The notes under the pieces: generated by a model | What the model saw: the letters and a program-made list of their open reading frames with translations, nothing else | Databases searched by the model: none | Told to the model about the DNA's origin: nothing | Translations under genes and position numbers: made by a program | Origin: an uncultured delta proteobacterium | Lineage (GTDB): Bacteria > Myxococcota_A > UBA9160 > SZUA-336 | DNA: 64,000 nucleotides | NCBI GenBank assembly: GCA_963704165.1 | Contig: CAVPHD010000004.1 | Location: 512,001 to 576,000, forward strand | Direction of reading: 5' to 3' | Shown: in pieces, positions 3,926-17,162 of the stretch | Layout of the letters: every line of letters starts with the position of its first letter | Position numbering within the stretch: position 1 is the first letter of the stretch

Positions 3926-5488
3926 ATGGCATCGGCGGCCGCGGACTCCTTGCCGGACGAACGGTCGCTTCACGTCTCGCGCGGTACGGGAGCGGCGTGC
4001 GTTCTGGCGCTCATCCTCGCCGTGACGCTCGAGGCGTCCGCACAGGGCGGAGGAGAACGCATCGCGCTGAAGCTGCGCGATGGAAGCCAGGCATCGCTCG
4101 AACGCGGTCAGCTCGTCGCGCGGGGGGCCGATCTGACCGAGCTGCACCGAGTACTGGCGGAGTTCGACCTCCGTCCGGGCGCGTTGTCCCCCACCTTCGT
4201 GCGAAGTCCGGCGGCTCTGCGAGCCGAGCACGCGCTCGCCGAGCGCAGGGGCGGACGCCGGCTCGGTGAGCTCGCGCTCTTCTTCAACCTCGAAGTCGCG
4301 CCGGGAACCGACGTGGCCGCATTCGTCGCCGCGCTCCGCGCGCTCCCCGAGGTCGAGAGCGCCGACCCCTGGCCGAAGCCCGCACCACCGCCGTTCGACC
4401 TCGATCCACCCACGCCCGACTACTCCGCGCTGCAGACGTTCAAGGCGGCTGCGCCCGTCGGCATCGGCGCCGCCGGCTTCGTCGGAATCACGGGCGCGGA
4501 CGGCTACGGGACACGCTTCGTCGATGTCGAGTACGAGTGGCGCCTCGACCACGAGGATCTCGAGCTTGCCGCGAGTACGGTGGTCCCGGTTGGAACCGCG
4601 GTGAATCCGTTTCCCGACGACGGCAGTCACGGAAATGCGGTGCTCGGCCTGTTGTCCGCGCGCGCGAACGGGTACGGCGTCACCGGGCTCGTGCCGGCGT
4701 CGCAGGTCCGTGTCGCCGCCGCGCAGACGGCGGAGCACGGCTGGGACGTCGGGCGCGCGATCGAGCAGGCGATCGTGGCCTTCGGCCCGACCGTGGGCCC
4801 CGGTGACCTGATCCTGATCGAGCAGCAGATGTACGTCTGCGGTTTCGATGGCTCCGGCGGGGGCCAGACGGGCGCGGGTCCAGTCGAGGGATATCCGGCC
4901 TGGCGTGCCGCGATCGCGACCGCCACGGCGCTCGGTGTCATCGTCGTCGAGGCGGCGGGCAACGGCGGTGTCGATCTCGACGCGCCGAGCTGCAACGGCG
5001 TCTTCGATCGCGGGCTCGGAGATACCGGTGCGATCGTGGTCGGTGCGGGATCGGCTTCGTCGCGCGCGCCGCTCGCCTATGCGTCCTACGGCAGCCGCGT
5101 CGACGTTCAGGGAGTCGCGGAGGGCATCGTGACGCTCGGCGGGGGCTCGCTCTTCGGCGGCGGCGACCCGTTGCAGAAGTATCAGTCGAACTTCGGGGGC
5201 TCTTCGTCCGCCGCTGCGATCGTGGCCGGCGTCGCGCTCGCGGTGCAAGGCCTGCGACGGGCGGGCGGCCACGCGCCGCTCGACCCGTTCGCACTTCGCG
5301 ACCTGCTCGTGCAGACCGGCACGCCGCAGGCGCCCGATCCGCGTCAGATCGGGCCGCTGCCGGATCTCGGTCAGGCCTACGCCATCGGTGTACCGGCGCT
5401 GTTGATCCGGACGCTGCCCTACTGGGCGGCGCTCGCGCTGTGTGGGCTGCTGCTCGCCGCCGTCGCGATCCGGATGCGCGCGCGCTAG
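3926..5488 (+). CDS. Secreted S8 (subtilisin-like) serine peptidase with C-terminal sorting/anchor segment
   Basis: Signal-like stretch ending ASA; VDVE, SHGNAV, AAGNG, GGSSSAAAIVAG; C-terminal TM plus basic tail; start uncertain (3926 or 3950). Confidence 0.85.
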   Translation: MASAAADSLPDERSLHVSRGTGAACVLALILAVTLEASAQGGGERIALKLRDGSQASLERGQLVARGADLTELHRVLAEFDLRPGALSPTFVRSPAALRAEHALAERRGGRRLGELALFFNLEVAPGTDVAAFVAALRALPEVESADPWPKPAPPPFDLDPPTPDYSALQTFKAAAPVGIGAAGFVGITGADGYGTRFVDVEYEWRLDHEDLELAASTVVPVGTAVNPFPDDGSHGNAVLGLLSARANGYGVTGLVPASQVRVAAAQTAEHGWDVGRAIEQAIVAFGPTVGPGDLILIEQQMYVCGFDGSGGGQTGAGPVEGYPAWRAAIATATALGVIVVEAAGNGGVDLDAPSCNGVFDRGLGDTGAIVVGAGSASSRAPLAYASYGSRVDVQGVAEGIVTLGGGSLFGGGDPLQKYQSNFGGSSSAAAIVAGVALAVQGLRRAGGHAPLDPFALRDLLVQTGTPQAPDPRQIGPLPDLGQAYAIGVPALLIRTLPYWAALALCGLLLAAVAIRMRAR

Positions 5489-6036
5489 AGGGAGCGCTCG
5501 CGCGGACGATCCACGGTCGCGAGTCGGGCCTCGAAGCTCTCGAGCGCGGTCGCGAGCCGTTCGAGGTTCTTGTTCAGCGCCTCGAGGTCGCCGCGCGTCG
5601 GCAGATCGGCCACGTGCAGCACGTGCTCGACCGCGGCGTGGACCGTTCGCGTGATCTCGGACGGGTCGAACGGTGCGCCGTCGCCAGGAGTACGAATCCA
5701 GCGTCGCATGTTGTCGCGCATCTCGTTCAGGTTGGTCTCGACGTCCCCTACACCGCGCCGCACCAGGCTGTAGAGGGCGTCTCCACCGCGTTGGATCAGC
5801 TCGGTGAGAAGCGTGCCGGAGACTGCAGAGTCGCGGTCTCCGCGATTCCCCCGCTGATCATCCACCAGGATCTGCGACAGCACGATCGGCGTGATCTCCT
5901 CGCCGGTCTCGTTGTCGATCACGCAGATGTCGTGACCCTCGCGCACGAGCTCGGAGATCCCTTTCAACGTGATGTACCGGCTCGACTCCGTGTTGTAGAG
6001 CTTCCGGTTCGCGTAGCGCTTGATCAGGATCGCCAT
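5485..6036 (-). CDS. Polyhydroxyalkanoate synthesis regulator (PhaR-type DNA-binding domain) with phasin-like C-terminus
   Basis: IKRYANRKLYNTESSRYITL...IDNETGEEIT...LSQI; C-terminal LPTRGDLEALNKNLERL. Confidence 0.88.
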   Translation of the reverse strand: MAILIKRYANRKLYNTESSRYITLKGISELVREGHDICVIDNETGEEITPIVLSQILVDDQRGNRGDRDSAVSGTLLTELIQRGGDALYSLVRRGVGDVETNLNEMRDNMRRWIRTPGDGAPFDPSEITRTVHAAVEHVLHVADLPTRGDLEALNKNLERLATALESFEARLATVDRPRERSL

Positions 6037-6341
6037 CGGTCGCGAGTATCCCACCGCACCTTGGGTCGGTCAAACCCTTCGCGCTCGCGCTTCCGTCGCG
6101 TGTGGACGCTCGGCGCGATCGCATCGGAGAGCGCGGCGAAGATCTCGCGCACGCGCTCGGCGGCCGGATCGTGGGCGGCGCGCTCCGCCCAGCGCTTCTC
6201 TTCCGCGCGAAGTGCGGCGCGCACGCGCTCGAGGGAAGGCGCGCTTCCGCCGAGCACGCTGGCCCCGGAAGCGAGCGCGAGAGCGAGCTCTTGCGCGGAG
6301 CGCACGAGATGCTCGAGCGCGCGTTGACCGGGGTCAGGCAT
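6024..6341 (-). CDS. Hypothetical helical protein in the ArsA-phaR operon
   Basis: Fills the gap between the second arsA-like gene and phaR, overlapping both. Confidence 0.6.
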   Translation of the reverse strand: MPDPGQRALEHLVRSAQELALALASGASVLGGSAPSLERVRAALRAEEKRWAERAAHDPAAERVREIFAALSDAIAPSVHTRRKREREGFDRPKVRWDTRDRWRS

Positions 6342-7512
6342 CGGCCTTCGGCGCGAAGATCAGACTCCCGATGCGCGCGAGCGCCTCGAGCTCGTGAACG
6401 TCCTCGCTGAAGAGCGGCACCACGCGCACGGCATCGGCCTCGAGCGGCAGTGCCTTCTCGAGCCGTGCCCGCACCGCGAGGTCGCGACGCGCGAGCGCGG
6501 CCTGCGCCCGCGTCGACGCGACCAACGCGCGCGCGCTGCTCGCGGAGTCGAGTTCGGGCGCGGCCGCGTCGATCGCGCCCGTCAGCCACGAGATCGCGCG
6601 CTCCACTTCCTGAACGTCGTCGGCGGGAGGATCGCCGGCGCCGGGCCAGGTGTGCACGCGATTCAAGACCAGTCCGGCGAGCTGGATCCCTTCCTCTTGC
6701 AGACGCCGCCAGAAGGATTCCGCGCTCTTCGCCTGTTGGAGATCGGGCCCCGCCACCAGCACGAAGCCGCAGATCGGGTCGCGAAGCAGACCGGCGACCT
6801 CGCGCGCGCGCTCGGAGAAGCCGCCGAGCATCTCCTCGAAGGCGAGCAGGAACTCGGAGATCGACGTCAGGAACTCGAGTCCGGTGATCCGCTCGAGACC
6901 GCGCATCATCAGCTCCGACCCGGAGCGGAAGAGGCGAAAGCTGGCCCGTCCGACGACCGCGGCGGGGTGGAGGAGCACCGTCAGGAACTGGCTCTCGAGA
7001 AATCCGGCGAGCCGGCGCGGCGCGTCCAGGAAGTCGAGCGCGTGGGAGGCGGGGGGCGTGTCGAGCACGATCAGATCGTACTCCCCGTCGGCGTGGATCT
7101 GGCGCAGCTTTTCCATCGCCGAGTACTCGCGGCTCCCGCCGAGCGCGTCGGTCAGGTTTCGATAGATCGGATTCGAGTAGATCCGCGCGCGCGCGTCCGG
7201 ATCGGAGGCGAAGCGCTCGACGAGCTCGTCGAACGTGCGCTTGGTGTCGAGCATGAGTGCGGCGAGCTTGCCGTCGCCCGTCACACCCGCTTCGCGCAGT
7301 CGGTCGCGCGGAACCTCGCGGGGAACGTGGTCGAGCGCGCCGGTTCCCAGCGCGTCCGCGAGCCGTCGCGCGGGATCGATCGTCATCACGAGCACGGACT
7401 TCCCGGCGCGCGCGCCGGCGAGGCCCAGCGCTGCGGCGATGGTGGTCTTGCCGACGCCTCCGGTGCCGACGGTGACGAGAACGCGACAGTCGAGCCAGCG
7501 TTCGGGTTTCAC
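6334..7512 (-). CDS. ArsA/Get3-family ATPase, subunit lacking the signature lysine
   Basis: GTGGVGKTT, TIDPARRLA, DTPP, LDFLDAP; GTG start overlaps upstream TGA. Confidence 0.9.
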   Translation of the reverse strand: MKPERWLDCRVLVTVGTGGVGKTTIAAALGLAGARAGKSVLVMTIDPARRLADALGTGALDHVPREVPRDRLREAGVTGDGKLAALMLDTKRTFDELVERFASDPDARARIYSNPIYRNLTDALGGSREYSAMEKLRQIHADGEYDLIVLDTPPASHALDFLDAPRRLAGFLESQFLTVLLHPAAVVGRASFRLFRSGSELMMRGLERITGLEFLTSISEFLLAFEEMLGGFSERAREVAGLLRDPICGFVLVAGPDLQQAKSAESFWRRLQEEGIQLAGLVLNRVHTWPGAGDPPADDVQEVERAISWLTGAIDAAAPELDSASSARALVASTRAQAALARRDLAVRARLEKALPLEADAVRVVPLFSEDVHELEALARIGSLIFAPKADA

Positions 7513-8510
7513 TTCGAGACCTCGGCTCGCGACTGCGCGAGCGCCGCTCCGAGATGATCGGCGAGCGCGGCGACGCCGGATGGACCATCCACGCCCTGAT
7601 CGAGCCAGGGCAGAACGACCGGAGCGACGCCGAACTCGCCTTCGAGTCGGGCGAGGAACCCCGCCTGCATGCGCGTGCGAGAGAGCCGATGTCGCACGGA
7701 GGCACAGAGCGCGACGGGCTCCACGAGCGGAGACGGGGCGCTCGCGGCGTCGAGGGACGCGACGACCTCCAGCACGCGCTCGGCGTCGGGCAGCGCGAGC
7801 GGGGGCTCGACTCCGTTCGCGATCACCGGACCGAGCGCGAGCCCGAGCTCGCGAATCCGCGCGCGCAGCTCGAGCGTCTCGTTCACCGGTAGCTCCTCGA
7901 GCAGGCTGACGATCAGGACCGCCGTTCGAGCGGGGTCCGTGAGCAGCGCTTGAACCAGATCGGTGTTCCGGCGAAGCGGGCCGATCCGCACGGTGTCGAG
8001 GATCACCGTCGGGGTCGAGAGCAGGGAGAGCCCATGGCCGGTCGCGGGTGCGTCGATCACGATCAGCGGCCAGAGCGCTGATCCCTTCGAATCCTCGAGC
8101 GAGACCAGGTGCCAGAGCTTTCCCAGCGTGATCAGCTCGCGCCAGCCGGGCGCCGCCTCGAGAAAGCGTTGGAAGCCCGCGTTCCCGACGATCGCCCGCG
8201 CCAGGGCGCGCACGCGGATCTGCAGCTCCAGGTATTCGAGCAGGGCCTCCTCGGGAAGGATCCGAAGCGTGAACAGATTGGGCGCAGCCCGGACCGGATC
8301 GCGCCGCGGGTTCGCACTTGCGAGAGGCCGGTTCTCGCAGAGCAGATCCGGCAGCACCGACGTGTGGCCGAGCTCGACGACGAGCGTTTTGACGCCGGCG
8401 TCCGAGGCGAGTCGGCCGAGCGCCGCGGCGACGCTCGTCTTGCCGGTGCCACCCTTGCCGGTGACGAGCAAGAGGCGCCGCGCGAGCAGTTGCTTCGTCA
8501 GTTCCGACAT
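7509..8510 (-). CDS. ArsA/Get3-family ATPase, subunit lacking the switch-I DPA motif
   Basis: GKGGTGKTS, APGWREL, DAPATGH, EELPVNET. Confidence 0.9.
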   Translation of the reverse strand: MSELTKQLLARRLLLVTGKGGTGKTSVAAALGRLASDAGVKTLVVELGHTSVLPDLLCENRPLASANPRRDPVRAAPNLFTLRILPEEALLEYLELQIRVRALARAIVGNAGFQRFLEAAPGWRELITLGKLWHLVSLEDSKGSALWPLIVIDAPATGHGLSLLSTPTVILDTVRIGPLRRNTDLVQALLTDPARTAVLIVSLLEELPVNETLELRARIRELGLALGPVIANGVEPPLALPDAERVLEVVASLDAASAPSPLVEPVALCASVRHRLSRTRMQAGFLARLEGEFGVAPVVLPWLDQGVDGPSGVAALADHLGAALAQSRAEVSK

Positions 8511-11683: not shown

Positions 11684-12436
11684 TTGCTGCGCGGCGAACC
11701 TTCGCTCTGGCCCTGGGCCGCGCTTCCCCTCTTGTTGAACCTGACGGCGTTCGGGCTGGCGATCTGGGCGTTCGTCGCGAACCTCGACGGGATCGCGGCG
11801 CCGCTCGAGCGCGCGCTCGACCCCGGCGAGCCGGCGGAAGTCTGGGGTTGGATCTGGGCCGGGCCGCTGCTCGTGCTCGCGTTCCTGGCGCGATGGTTTC
11901 TGCTCGCGGTGCTCGGCGTCGCGATCTACTTCCTGTTCACGGTTCTCGGCGGCGTCGTCGCGGCCCCATTTCTCGACGTGCTCTCCGAACGGGTCGAGCA
12001 GATCGTGACGGGTGCGTCTCCGCGCGCGGACTCCACGCTCGCGGATTTCGTTCGCGGCGCGCTCCGCAGCATCGTCGAGGAGGGCAAGCGCGCGGCGTTC
12101 TTCCTGTCGGTGCAGCTCGGGATCCTGCTCTTCGGCCTGATTCCCGGTGTTCAGCCGATCGCCGCTCTCGCGAGTCTCGGCTTCACGTCGCTCTTCCTGC
12201 CACTGGATTACACCGCCTACGCGTTGGATCGGCGCCGAGTCCCGTTCCGGCTGCGGAGGCGATGGATCTTCGGTCACGCGCCCGAGATGCTCGGCTTCGG
12301 TGGTTTCGGAGTCGTGCTCTTCTTCGTGCCCGGCCTCTCGTTCCTCTGCCTGCCGTGGCTCGTGACCTCGGGCACGTTGCTCGCGCTCGACCTCGGCCCG
12401 CCGGACGGGCGAACGGCCGTCACGCCGGGCGAGTGA
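11684..12436 (+). CDS. EI24/CysZ-family membrane protein
   Basis: Multiple TM helices, AAPFLDVLSERVE, LDY...LDRR; start uncertain. Confidence 0.8.
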   Translation: MLRGEPSLWPWAALPLLLNLTAFGLAIWAFVANLDGIAAPLERALDPGEPAEVWGWIWAGPLLVLAFLARWFLLAVLGVAIYFLFTVLGGVVAAPFLDVLSERVEQIVTGASPRADSTLADFVRGALRSIVEEGKRAAFFLSVQLGILLFGLIPGVQPIAALASLGFTSLFLPLDYTAYALDRRRVPFRLRRRWIFGHAPEMLGFGGFGVVLFFVPGLSFLCLPWLVTSGTLLALDLGPPDGRTAVTPGE

Positions 12437-12989
12437 CGCGGTCGGCGATCTTCCGGAACCAGATCGCCTTTGGATTCGCGCTGGCTTCGAACTCGAGCCG
12501 GGCGACCCCGTTCGGGGCCGCGGCGAAGGCGCGTGCGAGCTTGGCGCCCAGACCGACACCGACGAATGTCACCCGCGTCTCGTCGAGCGCCGGGTCGGTG
12601 GCGACGAGCCCGAGCAGTTGCGCGAGGTCGGCCGCGACCTGCGCTTCGATCTCCGGTCGGAGCCGCTTGGCGAGCGCGGTCGTCGTGCCGAGCGCGAGCG
12701 CCGAGAGCTTGTCGCTCTTGCGCGCACCACAGAGCGGCAGGTCGAACGTCACGAGCGCCGCGTGCGCGCACCAGGCCGAAGCGGCGCTTTCGACGAAGGC
12801 GGAGCTCGCGCAGCCATCGGGTCCGGCGAGCAGGATCACCGGGTGGGGACCGCGGCCCGTCGGTCGAACGGTGCACCCGTGCACGCGGTCGCCCCGCGAG
12901 AGCAGACTCCACGCCGTCCTCGCGCCGTCGCGGCGCAGCGCGAGCCCGGGAACGCCCGCGATCGACTTCGACTCGGTCGAGCGGCGCAT
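12420..12989 (-). CDS. Truncated alpha/beta-hydrolase-fold protein lacking the nucleophile serine
   Basis: FDLPLCGAR, DETRVTFVGVGLG (GxSxG position); ATG coupled to upstream stop (TGATG). Confidence 0.65.
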   Translation of the reverse strand: MRRSTESKSIAGVPGLALRRDGARTAWSLLSRGDRVHGCTVRPTGRGPHPVILLAGPDGCASSAFVESAASAWCAHAALVTFDLPLCGARKSDKLSALALGTTTALAKRLRPEIEAQVAADLAQLLGLVATDPALDETRVTFVGVGLGAKLARAFAAAPNGVARLEFEASANPKAIWFRKIADRVTRPA

Positions 12990-13726
12990 CAGGCGGCGAG
13001 CCGCTGGCCGAGCCGCTGACAGAGCGCTCGCAGATCCCGGGCCGTCGCGCTCCCGGCTTCGAGCGCGTGCAGCGATTCGCCCCGGAGCAGCAGGCGATAG
13101 CTCGCGGCGTCGCGGGTGAGCCCGCCGAGGAGCTCGATCTCGACCCCGTACTGGCGGCGCGACGCCGCGGCGAGTCGCCCGATCAGCTCCGCAGCAGCCG
13201 CCGGTGAATCGGAGCCGACGACCAGAGCGAGTACGCGCCGGTTCGTGAGCGCCGGAGCGTACTCGCGCAGGAATCCGAGCGTCTTGCCGAGACCCCAGGG
13301 CGCGAGCTCGACCGGAAGCAGCACCGCGTCGAGGCCGTCGGTGGGGATCCGGCCGAGCATCGCCCCAAGCCGTGCCGGACTCTCGATCGCGATCGCCGGC
13401 ACGTCGTCTGGAACCGCGGCGAGCGCTTCGGCCGGATCCTCGCTGATCTGCCACACGACGCCGGGGACGCGCGGCAGCAGGGGAGACGCAGGGAACGAGC
13501 TGATGACGCACGCGCCGTGGGCCTCGGCGATCATGCCGCCGGCGAGCTCGAGCGCGAGCGAACAGGTCAGGGGCCGATCGGGATCCGCGGGCAGGCCGTA
13601 ACGGGCCGCGCGCGACGCCGAAGCCGAACGGGGGCGCTCGCGTGCATCTGCCGCCTCGCGAGCCTCTCTCTGCTCCTCCTCGGAGATGAAGTAATGAAGG
13701 ACGTCTCCGAGGTTCCTGCGCGCCAA
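12989..13726 (-). CDS. Degenerate MinD/FlhG-like protein without Walker A
   Basis: N-terminal RRNLGDVLHYFIS; C-half resembles FlhG/MinD (IELLGGLTRD...SATARDLRALCQRL); TTG start 14 nt after the parA stop. Confidence 0.6.
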   Translation of the reverse strand: MARRNLGDVLHYFISEEEQREAREAADARERPRSASASRAARYGLPADPDRPLTCSLALELAGGMIAEAHGACVISSFPASPLLPRVPGVVWQISEDPAEALAAVPDDVPAIAIESPARLGAMLGRIPTDGLDAVLLPVELAPWGLGKTLGFLREYAPALTNRRVLALVVGSDSPAAAAELIGRLAAASRRQYGVEIELLGGLTRDAASYRLLLRGESLHALEAGSATARDLRALCQRLGQRLAA

Positions 13727-13740
13727 AGCCGGCTCTCGTG

Positions 13741-14838
13741 CTAGCTGATGATGAGCACCGAGTTTACCCCGCCCGCGGGGCCTTCGACGCGACGGGGATT
13801 GCTCGGGTCCGGCTGCCATTCACCATCGACGAAGTAGCGGTACTGATACACGCCCGGTCCCAGACGCACGACCTTCTCCCAGGTGCCCTTCGGGCCCAGC
13901 CTCGTCTCGACGCCCTGGTCGGGGATCCAGTTGTTGAAGTCGCCCGCGAGCTGGACCTCGCGCACGTTCGGGTTCTTGAACGTGAAGACCACGCCCTTGG
14001 CGGAGGCCGACGCGACCTCGATCGGATCGGGCTGCGGAGCCTTGGGTTTGGCGGGCAGCTGCTCCTCTTCGCGGTCGTACAGGACTTCGAGAGCGAGCGA
14101 CATGTAGTCGACGAATCCGTACGAGCGGCGGTCGAGCTTCGCGATCGGAATCCCGCGCTGCGCCGCTTCGCGCAGGCGCACGTTCGAGCGGATCACCGTG
14201 TCGAAGACGAGGTCCTTGTAGGTCTCGCGGATCTCCGCCAGCGCTCGCTTCGCGAATCGCGTGCGGCCGTCGAAGAGCGTCGGCAGGATGCGGATCTTCA
14301 GCGAGTGGCCGATCCGATCCTCGAGCAGGCCGATCGTCTCGAGCAGCTTGCTCACGCCGTGCATCGAGAAGTAGCTCGTCTCGAGCGGGATGATGACTTC
14401 CTGCGCGGCGCGCAGCGCGTTGAACGTCAGGATCCCGACGTTGGGCGGGCAGTCGATCAGGATGAAGTCGTACTGCTTCTCGAGCTTCGCGATCGCCGCG
14501 GCGAGTCGCTCCGTGCGACCCCTCGCTCCCTCGGCGCCGAGCTTCTGCTCGAGCGCGGAGAGGATCACGCCGGACGGAGCGACGTCGAGGTTCTGCGAGG
14601 CGTTGGTGATCACCTCGTCGAGCTTCGCACCGGCGCCATCCGGTTCCGCCAGCACTTCGTAGAGGTTCTCGTCGACTTCTTCGGGATCGATGCCGAGGCC
14701 GAGCGTGGCGTGCGCCTGCGGATCCATGTCGACCACGAGCACCGCATGACCCTCGGCGGCGAGACATCCCGCGAGACTCACGACGGAGGTGGTCTTGCCG
14801 CAACCACCTTTCTGATTCATGACCGCGATGCAGCGCAT
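13741..14838 (-). CDS. ParA/Soj-family ATPase fused to a C-terminal AMPK-beta/CBM48 glycogen-binding domain
   Basis: NQKGGCGKTT, DMDPQ, IDCPP; C-terminal VQLAGDFNNW...GVYQYRYFVDGEWQPDPSNP...NSVL. Confidence 0.92.
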   Translation of the reverse strand: MRCIAVMNQKGGCGKTTSVVSLAGCLAAEGHAVLVVDMDPQAHATLGLGIDPEEVDENLYEVLAEPDGAGAKLDEVITNASQNLDVAPSGVILSALEQKLGAEGARGRTERLAAAIAKLEKQYDFILIDCPPNVGILTFNALRAAQEVIIPLETSYFSMHGVSKLLETIGLLEDRIGHSLKIRILPTLFDGRTRFAKRALAEIRETYKDLVFDTVIRSNVRLREAAQRGIPIAKLDRRSYGFVDYMSLALEVLYDREEEQLPAKPKAPQPDPIEVASASAKGVVFTFKNPNVREVQLAGDFNNWIPDQGVETRLGPKGTWEKVVRLGPGVYQYRYFVDGEWQPDPSNPRRVEGPAGGVNSVLIIS

Positions 14839-15040
14839 GCCTGTCCCTCCCCTTTACGAGACAGAGATCCGAACGGGGGCGTGCAACGGCAAGCGAATGA
14901 GCGACAACGGAAGGGGCGGCCTAGCATCCCGCGGATCACGCGTGGATGCTCCGCTCGATTCCGACGAGGCAGATCGCAAGATCTCCCTCAACTCTCCACC
15001 CCCATTCGAACCGAACGAAACGTAGCAGCAGGAGAATCCG

Positions 15041-16000
15041 ATGGCCAACTCCGGACAGCCACACCGGACGAGAATCGGGGTGCTCGACCTGGGCTCGAAC
15101 ACCGTCTTGCTGCTCGTAGCCGATGCCGAGGGCAACGTGATCCGCGACACCGCGCGAATCACGCGTCTCGGCCAGGGAGTCTTCACGAGTTCGGCGCTCG
15201 CGCCCGACGCGATCTCGCGCACACGTGCAGCGATCGCGGAGCTATCAGCGCTGGCTCGCGCGGACGGCGTCGAACGCCTGATCGCCGTCGGCACCGAGGC
15301 GCTTCGCTGCGCACGCGACGGCGCAGACTTCCTTGCGGGGCTGGTGAGCGATGGTGTCGTGGATGCTGCGAGCGTTCTCTCCGGTGAGCAGGAAGCCGAG
15401 GTCGCCGTCGAGGCGACGCGGCAGCGGATCGGCGCGCGGGCCGAATCGCTGGCCGTGATCGACGTGGGCGGTGGCAGTACGGAGATCGCCTGGCGCGCGC
15501 GCGCGGATTCGCCGATCGAGGGGGTCTCGCTACCGCTCGGGAGCGTGCGCCTGACCGAGGCGATGCTGCCGCGTCATCCGGTTCCGGAGTCCGATCTCGA
15601 TCTCGTCCGCGCCGAGGTACGGCGCGCGACGGAGCCGCTCGCACGCGCTCTGCCGAGCGGCCTGCCCGTGGGCGCGGCCGTGGTCGCGGTCGCGGGTACC
15701 GCAACCACGCTCGCCGCGCTCGATCTCGGGCTCGAGCCCTATGACGAAGCGCGGATCGAGGGACTCGAGCTCGACGCGGAGACGCTCGCCACGTGGATCG
15801 AGCGGTTGGCACGGCTCGGTGTCGCCGAGCGCAAGCGACTTCCGGGTCTCGAGGCCGGGCGTGCGGACGTCATCGTCGCCGGCCTGCTCGCGCTCGCCGG
15901 CGTTCTCGAGCGACTTCGCGCGCGGCGCTTTGCGGTGTCGGGCCGGGGTGTACGGCACGGCGTCGCGCTCCGCGTGCTCGCTGGCGAGATGGTCATTTGA
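15041..16000 (+). CDS. Ppx/GppA phosphatase family protein (short form)
   Basis: DLGSNT, RLGQG, GTEALR, DVGGGSTE, GSVRLTE, GRADVI. Confidence 0.92.
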   Translation: MANSGQPHRTRIGVLDLGSNTVLLLVADAEGNVIRDTARITRLGQGVFTSSALAPDAISRTRAAIAELSALARADGVERLIAVGTEALRCARDGADFLAGLVSDGVVDAASVLSGEQEAEVAVEATRQRIGARAESLAVIDVGGGSTEIAWRARADSPIEGVSLPLGSVRLTEAMLPRHPVPESDLDLVRAEVRRATEPLARALPSGLPVGAAVVAVAGTATTLAALDLGLEPYDEARIEGLELDAETLATWIERLARLGVAERKRLPGLEAGRADVIVAGLLALAGVLERLRARRFAVSGRGVRHGVALRVLAGEMVI

Positions 16001-16016
16001 TAACGTCCATCGGTCT

Positions 16017-17162
16017 GTGGAACAGACCATCCTCGTCGTCGTCGGTCCGGACGGGCCGCGTCCGTTCATGCGCGGGATCCTGGTGCAATCGCTCGTCTCA
16101 CGCGGCGTGCCATTCGATGTCGCGCTGGAGACCGCGACCGCGATTCGCGACCGCATCGCGGCCAAGCAACAGGTACTCGTCGCCGAGCTCTCGAGCCTCG
16201 TCGACGAGTTGCTCGACGATCGATACGACCTCGACGCGCCCGTCATTGCCGCCATCGCCGAGCCTCCGCGCGTGCTCGAGGAGACGGGATCCGGCAGCCC
16301 GTTCTCGAAGGGGATCCTCGCGGTCTCCCTGATGGGCGCGGGGCTCGAGCCGGATGTCGCGCAGGACGCGGCGCGCGAGATCGAGGCGCGACTTCTTCGC
16401 CAGGGTGTGGCGAACATCGACCGCACGAAGCTCCGCGACCTGGTCGCCGAAACGCTCGAGCGCACGCACGGGGAAGGCCCCGCGAGCCGCTACCGGATCT
16501 GGCGCGCCGCGCGCGACGACGGAAAGCCGAGTCTGGTGCTCCTCGGAGGCGCCACGGGCACGGGCAAGACGTCGATCGCGATCGAGGTCGCGCGACGGCT
16601 CGAGATTCCGCGCGTGATCGGCACCGACTCGATACGTCAGATCATGCGCCTGATGTTCTCTCCGGACCTGATGCCGGAAATCCACTCCTCGACCTTCGAT
16701 GCGCACATCGGAATGCCGCACACGGTCGCGCCCACCGGCGAGCCCGTCGTCGTCGGATTCCGCGAACAGGCACAGAAGATCGCGGTTGGCGTGCACGCGC
16801 TCTTCGATCGAGCCGTCGAGGAGAACACGAGCATGCTGATCGAGGGTGCGAATCTGGTTCCCGGCATGCTCGATCTCGCCCGCTATCGCGAACGCGCCCA
16901 CGTTTCGTTCATCATGACCGGAACGCTCGATCGCGAGGCCTATCGCAGCCGGTTCACTTCTCGCGCTGCCAAGGCGCGCGGCCGTTCGGCCGATCGGTAC
17001 CTGGAGCACTTCGAAGACATCTTGATGATCCAGAACTACCTGCTCGCCGAGGCGGAGCGCCACGAGTTGCCGATCATCGACAATCGGCACTTCGACACCG
17101 CCGTCGTCGCGGTGATCCGATCCGTGATCGCGACCCTGCCGGCCTTGCGACCACAGGCGTAG
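16017..17162 (+). CDS. 2-phosphoglycerate kinase-like P-loop kinase with tandem ATP-cone domains
   Basis: PFMRGILVQSL and PFSKGILAVSL repeats; GGATGTGKT, GTDSIRQIMR, IEGANLVPG. Confidence 0.85.
   Translation: MEQTILVVVGPDGPRPFMRGILVQSLVSRGVPFDVALETATAIRDRIAAKQQVLVAELSSLVDELLDDRYDLDAPVIAAIAEPPRVLEETGSGSPFSKGILAVSLMGAGLEPDVAQDAAREIEARLLRQGVANIDRTKLRDLVAETLERTHGEGPASRYRIWRAARDDGKPSLVLLGGATGTGKTSIAIEVARRLEIPRVIGTDSIRQIMRLMFSPDLMPEIHSSTFDAHIGMPHTVAPTGEPVVVGFREQAQKIAVGVHALFDRAVEENTSMLIEGANLVPGMLDLARYRERAHVSFIMTGTLDREAYRSRFTSRAAKARGRSADRYLEHFEDILMIQNYLLAEAERHELPIIDNRHFDTAVVAVIRSVIATLPALRPQA

Follow-up and report, generated by a model that had tools for sequence, protein, structure and literature searches.

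A class-conserved fusion of a ParA ATPase with a carbohydrate-binding domain of AMPK type: a candidate nucleoid-binding positioning module whose presence does not follow glycogen genes

The closest described relative of the locus studied here is the "ParA-CBM system" (clade ConB5), which Li, Burroughs and Aravind delineated computationally and for which they proposed an immune role on the basis of rapid divergence of its carbohydrate-binding module (CBM); their variant 2 adds an inactive ParA and an inactive restriction endonuclease (REase) (bioRxiv 10.64898/2026.10.19.760177). Orphan nucleoid-type ATPases also stand beside dedicated partners in McdAB, PomXYZ, ParC/ParP and PpfA, and activation by partner N-termini is the rule across the ParA/MinD family (PMC11407121). 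In this study, we analyzed a ParA-CBM locus in a 64,000-nucleotide stretch of DNA, hereafter the window, from an uncultured delta proteobacterium (GenBank assembly GCA_963704165.1, contig CAVPHD010000004.1, positions 512,001 to 576,000). We take the class of this genome to be UBA9160. A preliminary description of this DNA had proposed that the fusion gene heads a three-gene operon for the positioning of glycogen granules and that no characterized example exists; the latter holds for experiments in the literature found, but the gene set has already been catalogued computationally in the 2026 preprint. Our analysis suggests, with about an even chance of being right, that ParA-CBM and the product of the following gene (gene 2) constitute a housekeeping nucleoid-binding positioning module that has its own activator and whose cargo is likely not glycogen. 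The locus is a reduced form of the ParA-CBM family and appears to act in the manner of an orphan ParA pair for positioning.

As the preliminary description had recognized, the fusion protein consists of an intact ParA/Soj ATPase, a Pro/Glu-rich linker and a CBM of the type found in AMP-activated protein kinase (AMPK). Pfam matches were AAA_31 (residues 1-182, E 3e-52) and CbiA (residues 4-232) in the N-terminal part and AMPK1_CBM (residues 283-362, E 1.4e-10, above the cut-off) and CBM_48 (E 8.6e-5) in the C-terminal part, and the open reading frame (ORF) contains all the motifs that had been quoted (KGGCGKTT, DMDPQ, DCPP, FDGRT, NVRL, AGDFNNW, YRYFVDGEW and DPSNP). The ParA domain has a deviant Walker A with the signature Lys, the DxD of Walker A' and Walker B; K10, K15, T16, D39, Q41 and D129 are intact, and the catalytic residues are invariant in 81/81 class sequences. 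Arginines had also been reported at the positions that Soj uses for DNA binding, and they were found: R192 is present in all 81 sequences, and position 221 is Arg or Lys in all 81, R221 of the fusion aligning with R238 of Myxococcus xanthus ParA. These two residues are presumably the ones responsible for non-specific DNA binding. The AlphaFold model, built from a 65-sequence alignment, matched Soj/ParA chains with template-modeling scores of 0.88-0.95 and M. xanthus ParA (8ray) with scores of 0.92-0.93. Its linker is disordered, with a predicted local distance difference test (pLDDT) value of <50 at residues 269-279, and linker length across the ParA-CBM family ranges from 2 to 357 residues.

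The ParA-CBM locus is not chromosomal ParABS (Soj/ParA with ParB; 8ray), although the two share the fold, the Walker motifs, the DNA-binding basic residues and a hydrophobic ParB pocket. M. xanthus ParA receives ParB in a hydrophobic pocket of six residues (PMC12462528), and five of these six positions are hydrophobic in the fusion according to the 8ray alignment (V134, I136, F139, L171 and I176). The equivalents of Y81 and E82 of M. xanthus ParA are retained. Those of D110 and E117, in the acidic patch that binds the ParB arginine, are replaced: E117 is Lys or Arg in 81/81 class ParA-CBM sequences, and D110 is Val, Ile or Ala. These replacements would suit a partner other than chromosomal ParB. 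The earlier statement that no parB is adjacent was correct, and the genome has its own parA-parB pair on contig C1. Gene 2 has an N-terminal peptide in ParB register but neither a ParB/CTPase domain nor one of the helix-turn-helix (HTH) type.

Gene 2 is likely the dedicated partner of ParA-CBM. It begins with TTG, a start backed by homologues, 14 nucleotides past the fusion stop, and in 27 of the 31 class loci a homologue comes after the fusion; these loci were compared using script-called genes, some being cut at contig ends, after one duplicate locus had been dropped. This supports the suggestion that the ParA is an orphan whose dedicated partner is encoded downstream. Gene 2 gave no Pfam or NCBIfam match, while its predicted model (pLDDT 89.5) had FleN/FlhG proteins as the best Foldseek matches (E 1.6e-7). 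These MinD-like ATPases are its nearest solved folds (Z 17.5 and 17.1), the VIA alignment with 4rz2 covering 195 residues at a root-mean-square deviation of 3.0 (Z 17.5). Unlike FlhG/FleN, with which it shares 12% identity, gene 2 lacks Walker A, of which distant relatives keep a remnant, and has an extra N-terminal peptide; no flhF/fleQ context was found in the window. The pair resembles McdAB- and Pom-type pairs in that an orphan ATPase stands beside its own partner, the N-terminus of which may be an activating peptide (PMC11407121), but differs in that the partner is a dead FlhG/MinD fold, the ATPase itself carries a predicted ligand-binding domain and no gene for a cargo lies next to the pair.

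The N-terminal peptide is the best-conserved region of gene 2 and reads roughly RxLxDVLHYF in the class. Its R4, L6, V9 and L10 are in register with R13, L15, L18 and I19 of M. xanthus ParB, which lie in the ParA-binding motif (PMC12462528). By a loose pattern, such a peptide occurs just downstream of the fusion in 96 of 145 loci, some of them duplicates, and LGRGL is found in 10 of 21 out-of-class partner peptides as well as in the ParB of this genome. In five loci the ParB-like peptide is joined straight to a nuclease-like protein and not to the dead MinD-like one, so the peptide appears to travel with ParA and not with any single partner body.

The fusion is no chance occurrence, since 124 of the best 150 representatives at 50% identity are full ParA+CBM fusions. 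A genome scan yielded 80 loci, 72 of them fusions, labeled Myxococcota, Omnitrophota, Planctomycetota, Gemmatimonadota, Thermodesulfobacteriota and others, with the close homologues in Myxococcota. Our class sample comprised 151 genomes, namely 150 at >=85% completeness and this genome (84% complete); an orthologue was present in 143 and in single copy in 142, and one match spanned both ParA and CBM in 135, one of which has an internal stop. When a phylum sample was searched at E<=1e-62, 34/38 other genomes of the class matched, as against 0/162 genomes of other classes. In a quick tree, which we used solely for the class clade and the nesting of three genomes described below, its gain and loss counts being set aside because the fusions L075, L112, L117 and L141 were labeled CBM-less in it, all 42 class rows formed one clade (SH-aLRT 100), with subgroups that mostly track host families. 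The locus is also syntenic: a 2-phosphoglycerate-kinase-like gene accompanies it in 30/31 class loci and PMM in 25/31. This core-gene pattern, the synteny, the single copy and the invariant catalytic residues argue for a housekeeping module. As a separate observation, the long proteins P0131, P0224, P0225 and P0240 consist of 6-16 tandem AMPK-type CBM repeats.

The CBM can be missing while ParA and a peptide-bearing partner are kept. In class genomes G019, G064 and G104, ParA stops near residue 280 and the CBM is gone, the other operon genes being intact; these losses are secondary, since the three are nested in the class clade of the quick tree. Two Nitrospirota loci, L097 (5415-8413) and L093, likewise combine MerR, a CBM-less ParA and a nuclease-like gene, and L097 also has a gene 2 homologue.

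If the proposed positioning module works as these features suggest, ATP-bound ParA dimers would coat the nucleoid, and the N-terminal peptide of gene 2 would dock in the ParB-type pocket and set off hydrolysis and release, while the dead ATPase fold of gene 2 would couple the ParA cycle to cargo. The CBM would be an optional module that tunes or localizes the ATPase and binds a ligand that cells without glycogen still contain, which might be a glycan, such as a short alpha-glucoside, or the surface of a protein. A bolder version seems improbable: that this is a class-wide, undescribed nucleoid-positioning machine, insulated from ParB by its charge-swapped pocket, whose sugar pocket binds a cytoplasmic glycan or glycan-coated body made without known glycogen enzymes.

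Several results weigh against a positioning module. No cargo was identified, and none of four markers chosen for candidate cargos tracked the fusion gene: PhaC_N was found in 4/30 genomes, OtsA in 19/30, FlhA in 3/5 and CheW in 25/30, CheW being absent from the fusion-bearing G007 and present in the fusion-less G001 and G015. The invariant Trp pair of the CBM remains an argument that the ligand is a carbohydrate, and no candidate for it emerged. A profile of the 21 out-of-class peptides gave the peptide of this genome 3.1 bits, which is not significant alone, since 216 of 37,529 six-frame ORFs match or exceed that score; the same profile gave the genome's own ParB -5.1 bits, and the gene 2 alignment, when compared with this ParB by profile, showed no homology (probability 0.3%). 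Divergence is faster in gene 2 and in the nuclease-like gene than in the housekeeping neighbors (mean identity 0.43 and 0.37, respectively). We found no experiment on any ParA-CBM member, nor on glycogen in this lineage, in the literature covered, most subscription papers lying outside that coverage. A complex prediction with two ParA-CBM chains and gene 2, made without ATP or controls, scored 0.00 and was excluded from the evidence.

The features of the locus and of the variants named above are listed in Table 1.

Table 1. Positions and supporting evidence of the ParA-CBM locus in the window and of variant loci elsewhere
Feature	Position	Strand	Basis
ParA-CBM fusion gene, 365 aa	13741..14838	-	ORF and Pfam; AlphaFold mean pLDDT 91.6
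ParA/Soj ATPase domain, residues 1-253	14080..14838	-	AAA_31 E 3e-52; closest relative of solved structure 8ray, E 1.7e-46; template-modeling scores 0.92-0.95 to Soj/ParA chains
Pro/Glu-rich flexible linker, about residues 256-282	13993..14073	-	Sequence and AlphaFold model
AMPK-beta-type CBM48 domain	about 13744..13992	-	AMPK1_CBM; alignment to AMPK beta1
Gene 2, 245 aa, FlhG/FleN/MinD fold without Walker A	12989..13726	-	Foldseek, VIA, predicted model
N-terminal peptide of gene 2 in ParB register (R4, L6, V9, L10)	13682..13726	-	Conservation, alignment
Gene 3, 189 aa, truncated alpha/beta-hydrolase remnant	12420..12989	-	Alignment to hydrolases of relatives
CBM-less ParA loci	L166:1232-2080 (G064); L167 (G019); L168 (G104)		
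Peptide-bearing nuclease-like proteins	L052:7556-8083; L104:7101-7916; L108:7106-7711; L121:4175-4921; L136:7115-7642		

The CBM bears directly on the proposal that it anchors glycogen granules, which ParA would then space on the nucleoid. The domain belongs to the CBM48 family, its closest solved relatives being a pullulanase CBM and AMPK beta subunits (glycogen-binding domain 1z0n, 1z0m; E 2e-9 to 1z0n), and, in favor of the proposal, four of the six AMPK sugar-contact positions are kept, with carbohydrate binding itself predicted only. W304, R334 and W341 correspond to W100, K126 and W133 of AMPK beta1, and N359 to what we take, partly from reading the alignment, to be N150. By contrast, the equivalents of L146 and T148 are A355 and G357, the former position being Ala in this genome and Phe, Tyr or Leu in 39 of 65 family members; AMPK L146 and T148 mutants bind glycogen poorly (PMC2642990).

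The distribution of glycogen genes also speaks against the granule proposal. Marker matches in the 151 class genomes were GT5 in 49, GlgP in 38, GH57 in 16 and CBM_48 in 83, of which 21 (E>1e-8) were taken, from their scores, to be the fusion itself. With a lenient marker set of GT5, GlgB/GlgX-type CBM48 enzymes, GH57 and GlgP, granules are favored by 70 of the 135 genomes with a full fusion, which have some marker, and by 32 in which GT5, a CBM48 enzyme and GlgP co-occur; the remaining 65 have none, so the fusion is common in genomes lacking a recognizable glycogen pathway, an outcome that the preliminary description had itself named as speaking against granule positioning. Incompleteness does not separate the groups (93.0 vs 92.4 in the two marker groups of CBM-positive genomes), and 28 of the 45 CBM-positive genomes at >=95% completeness are marker-free. 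The near-closed genomes G010, G011, G060 and G112 (1-3 contigs) gave no match to GT5, GT3, GlgC, GlgP, GH57, GH77 or CBM48 enzymes, and G010 and G011 also lack GH13, no search having been aimed at GlgE itself. GlgE is a GH13 protein and would need a branching enzyme. Conversely, G019, G064 and G104 carry GlgB/GlgX-type genes yet have lost the CBM.

Nor does the CBM appear to be under relaxed selection where glycogen genes are missing. W304, R334 and W341 are invariant in 81/81 class sequences, 39 of which come from marker-free genomes, and within the family the proportions of nonsynonymous (pN) and synonymous (pS) differences in the CBM were alike with and without glycogen genes (pN 0.122/pS 0.599 vs 0.060/0.377), these values being uncorrected, with synonymous sites partly saturated and genomes related. 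In this genome, at its 84% completeness, we found no match to GT5, GlgP, GH57, GlgC, GH77 or GT3, and its one GH13 gave best NCBIfam matches that are alpha-glucosidase/trehalase-like and all below the cut-off. This absence is weak evidence alone, because the genome is incomplete and seven of eight other genomes of the genus have GT5 and GlgP, genes that this assembly could have missed. An alpha-glucan link outside the class is favored by a GH57-cluster gene near the fusion in 12 of 60 loci (two checked with Pfam), and by glgB in one, L106. Against granules as cargo, in ParA/MinD ratchets the activator rather than the ATPase sits on the cargo, and gene 2 has no CBM. In the class, the presence of the fusion is independent of glycogen genes, and glycogen granules are poorly supported as cargo in this lineage because the fusion is common without the markers and the CBM is lost in three genomes with GlgB/GlgX-type genes; we regard this proposal as the least probable of those considered here.

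The GH57-cluster genes near out-of-class fusions lie mostly in one kind of block, seen in records labeled Omnitrophota/Planctomycetales, where L081, L085, L090, L095 and related loci have an alginate-export-type porin, GH57 and a single-transmembrane (TM) protein without a Pfam match, followed by ParA-CBM. This block suggests a glucan export or uptake context in those lineages.

The invariance of the sugar pocket, including the 39 sequences from marker-free genomes, and the similar pN and pS values with and without glycogen genes would also be expected if the CBM read a small alpha-glucoside or other glycan, much as AMPK does glycogen, and set the ATPase, with the FleN/FlhG-like partner signaling to transcription through a MerR-type HTH protein or an extracytoplasmic function (ECF) sigma factor instead of moving a cargo. 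The AMPK domain is allosteric (PMC2642990), the nearest folds of gene 2 are FleN and FlhG, and MerR and ECF sigma genes occur in 17/31 and 23/31 class loci, respectively. However, hidden Markov models (HMMs) of MerR and of the nuclease-like protein (the latter built from 35 homologues) gave no match in this 84%-complete genome, in which the locus is intact, the best ECF match is about 59 kb from the locus, three class genomes do without the CBM, and G010 and G011 lack any GH13 enzyme. We consider a sugar-sensing switch of this kind unlikely, and prefer the positioning module.

The anti-phage role proposed in the preprint, in which the CBM would detect a carbohydrate linked to infection and multimers of ParA would confine the invader (bioRxiv 10.64898/2026.10.19.760177), must be weighed with the correspondence between the two gene sets. 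The described system has a ParA with a C-terminally fused AMPK1_CBM, and gene 2 is its inactive ParA-like protein; the inactive REase of variant 2 is found in 23/31 class loci as the nuclease-like gene, and the upstream TM gene of variant 1 matches a cluster at position -1 in 20/60 out-of-class loci. The family is patchy across phyla and its partners diverge fast, as an immune function would predict, and one partner has a nuclease-like fold according to the preprint, for which the one supporting match that we found was a weak PADLOC match (E 6e-6) of one out-of-class protein. Nevertheless, within this class the CBM does not evolve rapidly: the mean identity between pairs was 0.65 for the CBM, compared with 0.70 for ParA, 0.63 for PMM, 0.68 for AAA and 0.61 for VWA; inside the family of this genome it was 0.91 vs 0.87 for ParA, and CBM conservation equaled or exceeded that of ParA in 74 of 113 close homologues. 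This test concerns the class, and other lineages may differ. The gene is near-universal, single-copy and syntenic among housekeeping genes, the family of this genome is without REase-like and MerR genes, and PADLOC applied to the 32 window proteins returned two partial domain matches (a 35-residue P-loop and a methyltransferase-like one) and no system. The section of the preprint on this system is silent on the ParB-like peptide and the CBM-less loci. An immune role is therefore distinctly improbable in this lineage, and the positioning module remains our preferred reading.

The third gene is probably not part of the module. The tight coupling of two downstream genes described earlier is real, with the 14-nucleotide gap and then the TGATG overlap of genes 2 and 3, but this three-gene layout is limited to the family of this genome; of the three-gene proposal, gene 2 stands as a likely dedicated partner, whereas gene 3 is a hydrolase remnant. 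In gene 3, Gly replaces the nucleophile Ser, and the C-terminal part with the acid/His region is missing. It aligns with the alpha/beta hydrolases that come after the ECF gene in relatives, and was probably moved beside gene 2 by loss of the intervening genes. The same block in other class families contains MerR, the inactive nuclease-like gene and the ECF sigma factor (in the 31 class loci, nuclease-like 23, ECF sigma 23, hydrolase 24 and MerR 17). A promoter/terminator scan of 12300-15100 found none, as shuffles predict. Gene 3 also overlaps a convergent CysZ/EI24 gene by 17 nucleotides (window 12420-12436).

On the other side of the locus, the 2-phosphoglycerate-kinase-like gene with an ATP-cone (window 16017-17159, plus strand), of a family that is presumably mainly archaeal, is divergent from ParA-CBM or its MerR in 30/31 class loci. 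Between it and ParA-CBM lies a Ppx/GppA gene (window 15041-16000, plus strand) only in the family of this genome (4 loci); MerR occupies this position in other families. Farther away (window 5485-8510, minus strand), a BagA/BagB-like ATPase pair of Get3/ArsA fold, a small ORF and a PhaR/phasin-like gene form a block that keeps synteny with ParA-CBM in several genomes of the class. Polyhydroxyalkanoate granules were considered as cargo because the phaR/phasin-like gene is about 6 kb away, and were rejected: PhaC_N occurs in only 4/30 genomes and not in this one, although class III synthases may escape this model. Elsewhere in the genome are two more orphan ParA/MinD genes, at C1:486970-487797 (L198) and C1:476113-477754 (L197); one is ahead of an acyltransferase, and one is FlhG-like and ahead of a DnaJ-HTH protein.

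Both functions proposed so far, glycogen positioning and the immunity of the preprint, fail simple genomic tests in this lineage, leaving the puzzle of a ParA module conserved across a class, with an invariant sugar pocket, in cells without a detectable glycogen pathway. Natural variants make ParA-CBM testable: CBM-less loci can serve as controls, some loci have no nuclease-like gene, and in others the peptide sits on a different partner. If a cargo is positioned, the list of ParA/MinD cargos would be extended, and a glycan bound by the pocket where glycogen is missing would point to carbohydrate biology so far undescribed. Were the ParB-insulated machine real, it would mean a class of cargo new to ParA ATPases as well as an unrecognized polysaccharide pathway.

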